Origin: a virus
UHGV virus genome: UHGV-0167591
Direction: 5' to 3' (one strand)
Length of the DNA: 64,000 nt
Of this stretch, positions 36,424 to 36,971 are shown in pieces. Position numbers and translations under genes: made by a program. Position 1 is the first letter of the stretch. Each line of letters opens with the position of its first letter. Under the pieces are notes generated by a model. That model searched no databases and was not told the origin of the DNA. It saw only the letters and a list, made by a program, of their open reading frames with translations.

Positions 36424-36454
36424 ACCTGTAGATTGGGATATGAACCCGTTACAG
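36424..36454. repeat. tRNA-like minihelix repeat unit 1
   Basis: CCTGTA-GATTGGGATATGAACCCGT-TACAGG: 6 bp outer stem enclosing a T-arm-like GGG/CCC hairpin. Confidence 0.5.
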
Positions 36455-36703
36455 GAGAATGCTCTTACCTGTTGCGTACTCCGTTTCATGGAGCTAACGG
36501 CGGGTGATCAGACCGCACCAGACTGGACTTATTTCAGCGTTATGCTCATGCCAGAGAATCAAACTGTGATGGTCGGTGCTGAACTCCGACACAGGGTTGT
36601 AGCAAGCCCCGCAAAGCGCGCACTACTGTAGTTGCGGCACATCAGCCTGTGCATTCACCACAATGTTGAGAACACTGGTTGTCACGCTGCAACGCAACAT
36701 TTA

Positions 36704-36730
36704 TTCGTAGATTGGGATATGACCCCGTTA
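36704..36730. repeat. tRNA-like minihelix repeat unit 2
   Basis: CGTA-GATTGGGATATGACCCCGT-TACG: same core as unit 1, with a 4 bp outer stem. Confidence 0.5.
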
Positions 36731-36898
36731 CGCCAGTGTTCTCAACGTTGTAGTGCCGGTTACGGTTCCGGCCAGGCCTCTTCCTCAACGGGGTGTTCTC
36801 CATACGGACTACCGTTTATTGGTCGTTCCTGCGGTTTATGTTGTGAAGCCAGATGCTTATCTTCTGGTTGCTTCTAAGAGCTGCACTTCATCACAACG

Positions 36899-36971
36899 GT
36901 AAGGGTACTTCGTAGGGATTCGAACCCTCTGCCAAGCACAGCGATCTCCGACGTCGCAAAATACCCTTACC
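36899..36971 (-). other. tRNA-like element / probable tRNA remnant
   Basis: 10 bp terminal stem (GGTAAGGGTA/TACCCTTACC) enclosing a T-arm-like GGGTTCGAATCCC hairpin and a GCGA/TCGC arm; no canonical cloverleaf or anticodon arm. Confidence 0.35.

Follow-up and report, generated by a model that had tools for sequence, protein, structure and literature searches.

Small stable RNAs other than transfer RNAs (tRNAs) are co-transcribed and processed with phage tRNAs in bacteriophage T4 (species 1 and 2 of its tRNA cluster), and mimics of an anticodon arm exist in messenger RNA (mRNA) leaders, as in the operator of E. coli thrS. STnc100 and PasD have been detected as RNAs of prophage late regions and are said to share an ancestor (bioRxiv 10.64898/2026.05.13.724894; PMC12370729). 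Here, an intergenic interval of the virus genome UHGV-0167591 was analysed (64,000 nucleotides (nt), one strand; the whole stretch is referred to as the window), for which an initial annotation made from the letters had reported tRNA-like minihelix repeats and a tRNA remnant (positions 36,424 to 36,971). Positions 36250-36985 were 98% identical to positions 69496-70230 of P1 (NC_005856), and the window is from a P1-like phage-plasmid. The gap under study, approximately 730 nt long, runs from tRNA-Thr to the start codon of tciA (36247) on the minus strand, which is the sense strand of the ban operon, and exactly this region was present in about 12% of complete E. coli genomes (635/5426), on P1-like plasmids.

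Judged from its sequence, the interval appears to be an untranslated, highly structured RNA of the P1 ban-operon transcript, built as an array of conserved and exchangeable modules interleaved with tRNAs, and these modules are shared and exchanged among temperate Enterobacterales phages. The modular RNA architecture, common to P1, lambda and many prophages, is apparently undescribed; a full-text literature search with the stem sequences returned nothing relevant. Two kinds of module, long-stem hairpins (H-type) and apparently tRNA-shaped elements (S-type), alternate along the gap. Read in the direction of the ban operon, the array and its landmarks were as follows:

37339..37416, strand ambiguous: M0, a related long-stem hairpin upstream of tRNA-Asn (18-nt arms, 89% complementary)
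37058..37133, minus strand: tRNA-Asn (GUU), first gene of the array (ARAGORN; Rfam tRNA model, 70.8 bits)
36980..37055, minus strand: tRNA-Thr (UGU) (ARAGORN; Rfam tRNA model, 74.9 bits)
36892..36978, minus strand: M1, an H-type long-stem hairpin, corresponding to the 73-nt element of the initial annotation (fold of -39.9 kcal/mol, z -4.8)
36840..36897, minus strand: S1, a short element in an S-type slot, closed in the sequence by GUUGUGAUGAAG / CUUCACAAC
36756..36839, minus strand: Y, a conserved spacer ending in an S-type 3' hairpin, GCCGGAACCGUAACCGGC, then ACUACAAC
36656..36755, minus strand: M2, a long-stem, H-like hairpin with 23-nt arms (fold of -50.7 kcal/mol, z -5.2)
36563..36664, minus strand: S3, a canonical, putatively tRNA-shaped S-type element with closing helix AUUGUGGUG / CAUCACAGU, 5' hairpin GCACAGGCUGAUGUGC and 3' hairpin GUCGGAGUUCAGCACCGAC
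36477..36562, minus strand: X, a segment ending in hairpin GCUCCAUGAAACGGAGU, from alignment with P7, D6 and CMS-2020a
36398..36476, minus strand: M3, an H-type long-stem hairpin with the H-type base consensus (fold of -37 kcal/mol, z -6.3)
36279..36403, minus strand: S4, an STnc100-like S-type element in the 5' leader of tciA, with a perfect 9-bp closing helix, GUUGCGGUG/CACCGCAAC
36247, minus strand: the tciA start codon, downstream end of the gap
35472-35547, minus strand: tRNA-Met/Ile2 (CAU) (ARAGORN and Rfam)

The elements pointed out by the initial annotation were all recovered at the positions given there. Its two repeat copies belong to a direct repeat that is longer than noted, a 25-mer at 36428-36452 and 36707-36731 (24/25 identical, 279 nt apart), which occurs in exactly two copies on the same strand in the 64 kb when up to three mismatches are allowed (0.00 expected from 100 shuffles). 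The 25-mer was considered as antisense to a target and rejected, as no such target exists and both copies are co-oriented. The 14-bp inverted repeat around the second copy is the core of 23-nt arms (36656-36678 / 36733-36755, 91% complementary). The 73-nt element (36899-36971) contains the 10-bp stem GGTAAGGGTA/TACCCTTACC and the T-arm GGGUUCGAAUCCC attributed to it, and the canonical anticodon arm is indeed missing, with only a 3-bp hairpin of variable length in that place; on the minus strand its stem extends to approximately 21 bp (36978-36892) through U·G pairs and one bulged A. The CACAAC base of M1 directly abuts the CCA end of tRNA-Thr, and the T-arm cores of the 73-nt element, tRNA-Thr and tRNA-Asn follow each other at exactly 78 and 78 nt. 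The hairpins folded better than dinucleotide-shuffled sequences (z = -4.6 to -6.3; 0/200 shuffles as good), S1 did not do so significantly on its own (z -0.9), and folding predicted the untranslated leader of approximately 730 nt to be structured throughout.

M1 and M3 are exact matches to the H-type pattern, the full form of which is cAC AACAGGTAAGRGCATTG (cargo) CAGTGCTCTTWCCGTTG TG. The base of the hairpin pairs as CAC-AAC-(A bulge)-GG-U·U-AAG / CUU-CC-GUU-GUG and continues into about seven covarying pairs, including a U·G, to give a stem of approximately 19-23 bp that carries a cargo of 40-55 nt, which is swappable between phages. M2 and M0 have the same architecture on other stem sequences and fall outside the H-type by pattern. 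A search of IMG/VR contigs (AACAGGTAAG-N40-70-CTTWCCGTTG) matched more than 120 contigs, most of them 30-50 kb long and hence not P1-like, and the matches listed comprised 79 distinct sequences with at least 39 unrelated cargo types. The commonest form, of 71 nt, is phage lambda's own sequence directly 3' of tR', where the hairpin precedes an S-type element whose closing helix is GUUGUGCUG/CAGCACAAC (NC_001416, approximately 44,789-44,940, in the unannotated Q-S leader); the Q-S region of the K-12 prophage DLP12 contained no H-type module. A sequence closely matching the lambda S-type element is also present in P7 and D6, 3' of their tRNA-Ser-like gene. Intergenic leaders in phages of Klebsiella, Salmonella, Citrobacter, Cronobacter and Enterobacter and in Sashaviruses likewise contained pieces of the P1 gap (72-94% identity); some of these leaders separate Q-like from lysis genes or lie among head genes, and others come after repressor regions or precede an N-like gene.

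In data with one genome per species, the pattern used was loose, and its 111 matches comprised 65 by chance, 20 that were the exact lambda sequence in unrelated assemblies, and 26 true H-type matches. The genera represented include Serratia, Klebsiella, Pectobacterium, Pantoea, Rahnella, Kluyvera, Citrobacter, Erwinia, Enterobacter, Escherichia and relatives, and the named matches that were checked were all from Enterobacterales, bar one short Martelella contig. The 20 assemblies with the exact 71-nt lambda hairpin, several of which had it on short contigs, came, where checked, from unrelated bacteria (Pseudomonas, Psychrobacter, Algoriphagus, Tardiphaga, Oceanobacillus and others), most likely as a result of contamination with lambda control DNA.

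Strand and pairing statistics were compiled from 102 distinct flanked H-type sequences. The helix runs three pairs (CAC/GUG) past the search pattern, the bulged A is fixed, the irregularities of the base are kept (U·U mismatch in 86%, U·G wobble in 75%), and the seven distal pairs covary (for example, GC/CG/UA at position 25). At the stem positions left free by the pattern, G·U outnumbered A·C by 152 to 6. Such an excess would be given neither by the opposite strand nor by DNA, and we therefore conclude that the modules act as RNA read from the minus strand. The tRNA nearest to an H module was co-oriented with it in 53/53 modules, that is, at every locus with an ARAGORN tRNA. Directly 5' of the H modules (172 distinct contexts) were terminator-like T-runs (36), the 3' end of a tRNA (35) or one of two conserved hairpin motifs (53), and the majority of modules were followed by the start of an S-type element (GUUGUG...).

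S-type elements have the form GTTGYGNTGAATGCRCAGGCTGATGYGC ... GCCGGAGATCAGCACCGGC CANCRCAAC. Their 9-bp closing helix occurs in compensatory variants (GUGGUG/CACCAC, GCGGUG/CACCGC and GUGAUG/CAUCAC; GUGCUG/CAGCAC in lambda), and the 5' hairpin likewise covaries (GCGC..GCGC, GCAC..GUGC, UCGC..GCGA). In our reading, the S-type would be tRNA-shaped, with 7 + 2 nt and a 4-bp stem with an 8-nt loop taking the places of acceptor strand and D-arm, and with a 3' hairpin set against the closing strand in the manner of a T-arm. The corresponding slots of other phages are occupied by tRNA-Arg(UCU), by a tRNA-Gly(CCC)-like gene, or by elements that combine canonical D- and T-arms with a 70-nt insertion. 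Copies of S1 (82-94% identical) are intergenic and share the orientation of their flanking genes in Sashavirus, P22-like and Klebsiella phages, and a segment 87% identical to Y lies in the early-operon leader of Citrobacter phage phiNP. Copies 84% identical to X come after a tRNA in Klebsiella phages; the hairpin that ends X, GCUCCAUGAAACGGAGU, is commonly found just ahead of H-type modules. S4 lies outside the interval initially annotated, yet is part of the same array. It is retained ahead of a different gene (serine protease) in Ro157, and at least its 5' part is retained there in RCS47 as well.

The two minihelix repeats are copies of one cargo motif that appears to mimic a CAU anticodon stem-loop. 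Copy 1 (36452-36428) is held by M3, and copy 2 (36731-36707) by M2 together with a second hairpin. Their core had been described as T-arm-like, a view that does not hold: the loop consensus YYCAUAW has a U where a T-loop needs A58, and fits a CAU anticodon loop; by the definition used for T-arms (5-bp stem, 7-nt UUCRANY loop), both copies fail at loop position 5, which is U. The P1 copies read GGG-UUCAUAU-CCC and GGG-GUCAUAU-CCC, and the minihelix in other phages is mostly GUGACGGGCUCAUAACCCAAUCCAC. The commonest motif, GTGACGGGCTCATAACCCAATCCAC, compares with GTCGGGCTCATAACCCGAAG of E. coli metZ, and in this commonest form GGG-CUCAUAA-CCC and the preceding C make up 14 contiguous nt identical to the anticodon arm of the E. 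coli initiator tRNA. When the loop was left free in the search, the members were still YYCAUAW, with rare variants CCU, UAU and AGU.

The motif was found in at least three stem types, including H-type stems. A second scaffold, located after a terminator, is tttttACRCAACASACRAGRGCAUCACCGG[..]CCGGGCG..GCAGGUGCYCUUCUSUGUUGUG, one example of which lies upstream of an rdgC-like gene (named by reading the translation of its open reading frame (ORF)). In the minihelix alignment (A2), 88.8% of the cells were paired, relative to 73.8% after shuffling (0/500 shuffles reached the observed value), with 34 double-change cells relative to 11.2 in shuffles, and slid controls gave at most 49%. A covariance model built from the phage motifs only (R1) placed the three initiator anticodon arms of metZWV at the top of their locus (14 bits, E 0.003). 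Applied to the window, it scored 46.1 bits on the M3 copy and 45.5 bits on the M2 copy, both of which belonged to its training set, and gave a weak match on the anticodon loop of the phage tRNA(CAU). A degenerate third minihelix, CUUGUAACGGGUAUAUCCCGUCAUG, with a 5-nt loop (37255-37280, minus strand), was rejected as a copy and is not recognised by R1.

The cargo of M1 resembles a tRNA elbow: a hairpin similar to a D-arm (GCGACGUCGGAGAUCGC, 36957-36941) is separated by a short hairpin from a T-arm (AGGGUUCGAAUCCCU, 36928-36914). The T-arm, (G)AGGG-UUCGAAU-CCCU(A), conforms to the definition above and is identical over 14 nt (positions 52-65) to the T-arms of phage tRNAs. The same cargo family (CGAYGUCGGAGAUCG, short hairpin, AGGGUUCGAAUCCCU) was present in 109 viral stretches (39 distinct flanked sequences) on at least five different outer stems. 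In the M1 stem, 9/29 predicted pairs keep pairing through two-sided changes (RNAalifold count), column pair 21-69 shows UG/AU/GC/GU/CG, and the three pairs adjoining the cargo vary as UUG/CGA, GAG/CUC, GGG/CCC, GCG/CGC and GUG/CGC. T-loop hairpins occurred in 5/39 H-type cargo types, relative to 0.06 expected in shuffles, and the cargo T-arms match positions 50-67 of real tRNAs.

Nine P1 relatives were aligned over the gap on the minus strand, and were found to swap, insert or delete whole blocks with sharp borders. In P7 and Ro157, the loop of the 73-nt element is exchanged for an unrelated 30-nt loop, which in JL22 and RCS47 occurs in an extra copy downstream of a P1-type element; these two also carry an additional 195-nt unit. 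In SJ46 and in IMG/VR loci with a 426-nt gap, recombination between the 25-mers has removed the intervening 279 bp, and a chimeric M2/M3 hairpin remains. An 87-nt tRNA-Ser(UGA)-like gene (called by ARAGORN, with encoded CCA, below the Rfam tRNA gathering score) replaces or complements X in P7, D6 and CMS-2020a; X is the best candidate in the array for a truly decayed tRNA, and Ro157 and CMS-2020a have a tRNA-Tyr between tRNA-Asn and tRNA-Thr. Polymorphism could be compared among only 8 unique P1-like sequences of the same architecture: from M1 to S3, 4/416 sites were variable, relative to 8/141 third codon positions of tciA (Fisher p = 0.003), with no variable site in either Y or S3.

The order in the P1 record, on the strand corresponding to the minus strand of the window, is dmt, P1ban/Op72, a dicF-like region, tRNA-Asn, tRNA-Thr, tciA, tciB, tciC, tRNA-Ile2(CAU) and ban, and the P1ban/Op72 promoter is C1-controlled according to that record. 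The placement of the elements within the ban operon transcript, as initially proposed, was borne out: they lie on the strand of the operon, the interval contains no promoter-like or terminator-like site, and no terminator-like site was detected on either strand at 36250-37000. ARAGORN and Rfam at the gathering threshold called only tRNA-Asn, tRNA-Thr and tRNA-Met/Ile2 in this area. Upstream of tRNA-Asn, the loop of M0 contains a T-arm-like sequence (CUGGUUCGAUUAACCAG); M0 folds on both strands (z -4.6 and -6.1) with one G·U and one A·C whichever strand is read, and its base, although similar to that of the H-type, is perfectly paired and so gives no indication of the strand.

Between the dicF-like terminator and tRNA-Asn lies an element (37468-37635, minus strand) resembling the coding piece of a transfer-messenger RNA (tmRNA). 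Its tag-like frame at approximately 37541-37506, UAAAU GCA AAC GAU GAU CUG AUG AUG GUA GCG GCC UAA, translates as ANDDLMMVAA*; the E. coli ssrA tag is ANDENYALAA. Rfam matches to it were below threshold (tmRNA_permuted, 25.7 bits; beta_tmRNA, 17 bits, the latter covering the 3' hairpin), and ARAGORN called no tmRNA at 37468-37635. In the copies of related phages the frame is again 10 codons long, and its hydrophobic-Ala-Ala ends differ (ANDDLMLMAA, ANDDVVLMAA, ANDEQFLAVA, ANDDLMLAAA).

Taken as a whole, the data are probably best explained by portable RNA modules that are processed by host enzymes and whose cargos bind factors recognising parts of tRNAs. Host enzymes of tRNA and ribosomal RNA maturation would cut the chain from the polycistronic transcript, with the stems of approximately 20 bp as substrates of RNase III, and the tRNAs and tRNA-shaped elements as those of RNase P and 3' trimming enzymes. 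Such cutting would free the tRNAs and several small stable RNAs, the flanking mRNA (tciABC-ban) being left with ends protected by hairpins, and the conserved cargos, as copies of tRNA parts, would bind the host factors that recognise those parts. The suggestion of the initial annotation that the elements may be RNase P/E processing signals remains plausible.

Several observations weigh against this explanation. The search patterns imposed the sequence of several columns in the minihelix alignment. The interior of the M1 cargo was likewise set by its pattern and hence invariant in the sample; its cloverleaf-like fold therefore lacks covariation support, RNAalifold favours another pairing of this interior, and the proposed D-arm and T-arm of M1 rest on likeness to tRNA, not on covariation. 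The Rfam tRNA model had no match on M1, S1, S3 or S4 even at E <= 10, and no module reached the gathering score. The cleavages by RNase III and RNase P are suggested by shape, namely helices of approximately 20 bp or more and tRNA-like elements beside real tRNAs. The terminator 3' of the dicF-like region (37606-37625) could limit transcription from P1ban, the gene downstream of an H module was on the same strand in only about 87/117 cases (crude ORF calls, noisy from spurious ORFs in structured DNA), and the polymorphism of X and S4 is about neutral, like that of tciA third positions. Silencing of trnT, plp, upl, tciABC and trnI by CRISPR interference had no effect on P1 plaque formation (PMC10695390), and any role is consequently accessory.

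The dispensability for plaque formation would also be expected if the interval were neutral debris, a graveyard of decayed tRNA genes left by turnover of the array and kept because it is harmless. The tRNA content of the relatives does vary (Tyr gained between Asn and Thr; Ser-like genes in P7, D6 and CMS-2020a), X both aligns with the Ser-like tRNA and is as polymorphic as tciA third positions, and whole-module deletions and insertions are common. The initial annotation had offered decayed tRNA genes as one interpretation, and its tRNA-derived part is upheld by the canonical T-arm in the 78-nt register, the enrichment of T-loop hairpins in cargos and the true tRNAs in neighbouring slots of other phages. 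'Decayed', on the other hand, is wrong for most of the elements, as unrelated phage groups retain these modules, in different operons and with compensatory changes, the bulged A, U·U and U·G of the H-type base persist as conserved irregularities, and M1 to S3 is less polymorphic than synonymous-type sites; debris is therefore an unlikely account of the interval. Distinctly unlikely, too, is structure without specific cargo function, in which hairpins stabilise RNA ends or exclude Rho from a long untranslated leader while the loops drift. Such a role would suit a leader that is untranslated and fully structured, the placement of H modules directly after T-runs (36/172), tRNA 3' ends (35) and conserved hairpin motifs (53), and the extreme diversity of the cargos; against it, particular cargos are conserved across scaffolds (the CAU-arm motif on at least three stem types, the M1 cargo on at least five), and a pure clamp needs no sequence-conserved base with fixed mismatches.

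Cargo swaps among close relatives that stay exactly within the stems (as seen at the M1 position when P1 is compared with P7/Ro157), recombination of the 25-mers with loss of 279 bp in SJ46 and other contigs, and the presence of modules at the 'moron' insertion site of lambdoid phages (PMC4104026) could point to elements acting at the DNA level, the inverted repeats being recombination or cassette-exchange sites or miniature mobile elements. We consider this very improbable, given that the G·U to A·C asymmetry (152:6) is the property of one RNA strand rather than of duplex or hairpin DNA, that co-orientation with tRNAs is strict (53/53), and that neither target-site duplications nor an associated recombinase were found. 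Hardly credible is the reading in the P1 record that the plus strand encodes two coding sequences (CDS), upl (63 amino acids) and plp (putative lipoprotein, 125 amino acids), which are annotated in the P1, RCS47 and JL22 records; upl reads were reportedly up-regulated in a dksA host (PMC8201110), although an unstranded or antisense signal of the ban transcript would look the same. Among 75 unique P1-like versions of the gap (203-1107 nt), the plp ORF was 81, 103, 139 or 143 amino acids long or absent, and the upl ORF was 63 or 109 amino acids long or absent, both length and presence following the module content. In the window a premature TAA at 36875-36877 (plus strand) cuts the plp frame to 81 amino acids (P1 reads AAA; Ro157 has the same base). 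In P1, plp has a TTG start codon and its frame reaches into tRNA-Thr, which is encoded on the opposite strand, and the peptide 'VDWDM(N/T)PL' common to both ORFs is the translated RNA repeat. The P7 authors called no CDS between terB and tRNA-Thr, D6 has only tRNA features under matches to the interval, and the Prokaryotic Genome Annotation Pipeline (PGAP) likewise calls nothing in the gap: in none of the 40 RefSeq records listed (from 658 E. coli matches) is a CDS annotated across the matched stretch, where the features, if any, are tRNAs (tRNA-Thr, in some cases tRNA-Ser). Neither upl nor plp is conserved as an ORF.

A bolder extension of the portable-module explanation, which we regard as quite improbable, is that the H-type hairpin is a display scaffold for interchangeable mimics of translation RNAs (the initiator-tRNA anticodon arm, T-arm/D-arm elbows and the nearby tmRNA coding piece) that would act as RNA decoys or sponges for host factors. 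Most speculatively, the initiator-arm mimic may be a decoy for enteric VapC, which cleaves tRNA-fMet in the anticodon stem-loop (PMC4705866). If true, an RNA-based counter-defence or translation-hijacking system would be hidden in 'leader' DNA and misannotated ORFs. P1 and lambda are among the best-studied genomes, yet the interval is represented by two dubious proteins in P1 and is blank in lambda (tR' to S). The module reading would correct the P1 annotation and provides a concrete, testable set of small RNAs, and the copy of the initiator arm could bear on phage-host conflicts over tRNA.

At the gathering threshold, no Rfam family was assigned to any module, and at E <= 10 the hairpins gave nothing beyond chance microRNA and mascRNA matches. 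The initial annotation had named missing covariance-model support and missing conservation in relatives as jointly counting against it, and the outcome is split: Rfam models lend no support, whereas the stem-loops are strongly conserved in relatives. The AgvB/AsxR anti-small RNAs were rejected as a match, being convergent, promoter-driven RNAs of 51-60 nt, unlike these modules. Likeness to integron attC or REP/ERIC elements was also rejected, since the core sites mismatch and the mismatch asymmetry points to RNA.

With the arm of initiator tRNA-fMet, the minihelix motif shares a 3-bp G-C stem and a 7-nt loop N-U/C-CAU-A-N, with identity over CGGGCUCAUAACCC in the commonest variant; it differs in keeping only 3/5 stem pairs, in the P1 loops (UUCAUAU, GUCAUAU) and in variants with GGC/GCC or GGA/UCC stems or with CCU, UAU or AGU loops. 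The features that M1 shares with tRNA (RF00005) are its canonical T-arm, a D-like hairpin whose loop contains GG, and an end helix that resembles an acceptor and keeps the 78-nt register with two tRNAs. Elsewhere, S-type slots are filled by true tRNAs (Arg-UCU, Gly-CCC) or by intermediates in which the D- and T-arms are canonical. M1 departs from tRNA in having neither a 5-bp anticodon arm nor a 7-bp acceptor with discriminator and CCA, its ends instead forming a helix of approximately 21 bp, and it is called by neither ARAGORN nor the covariance model. The bacterial Y-RNA-like YrlA (RF02553) is similar to M1 in its long helix of both ends and its tRNA-like module with T-arm and D-arm; the YrlA model had no match on M1, its sole weak match (17.7 bits, E 1.8) being on tRNA-Thr/Asn, and E. 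coli is not known to have the Ro partner. T4 species 1 and 2 have no sequence relation to the P1 modules.

Among the described RNAs, STnc100 and PasD belong to the S-type group. S4 aligned with Rfam STnc100 (RF02076) at 37.8 bits (E 3e-6; positions 31-147 of 206 in the model), below the gathering score of 47, and the model found nothing on S1 or S3. The P1 elements differ from STnc100/PasD in being without a terminator and inside an operon leader, and the published work on these RNAs treats them as base-pairing small RNAs, with the tRNA-like shape, the flanking H-type hairpins and the array not described. S4 and STnc100 share the outer helix UGGUG/CACCA and the 3' hairpin CCGGGAGGCACCCGG, and both S4 and the STnc100/PasD group are found in phage leader or 'moron' regions beside tRNAs and TerB-like genes, tciA being one such gene. 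S3 and S1/Y have the same architecture as this group, and a single architecture would link the P1 ban leader, the lambda late leader, the 'moron' site of Stx phages and the STnc100/PasD small RNAs.

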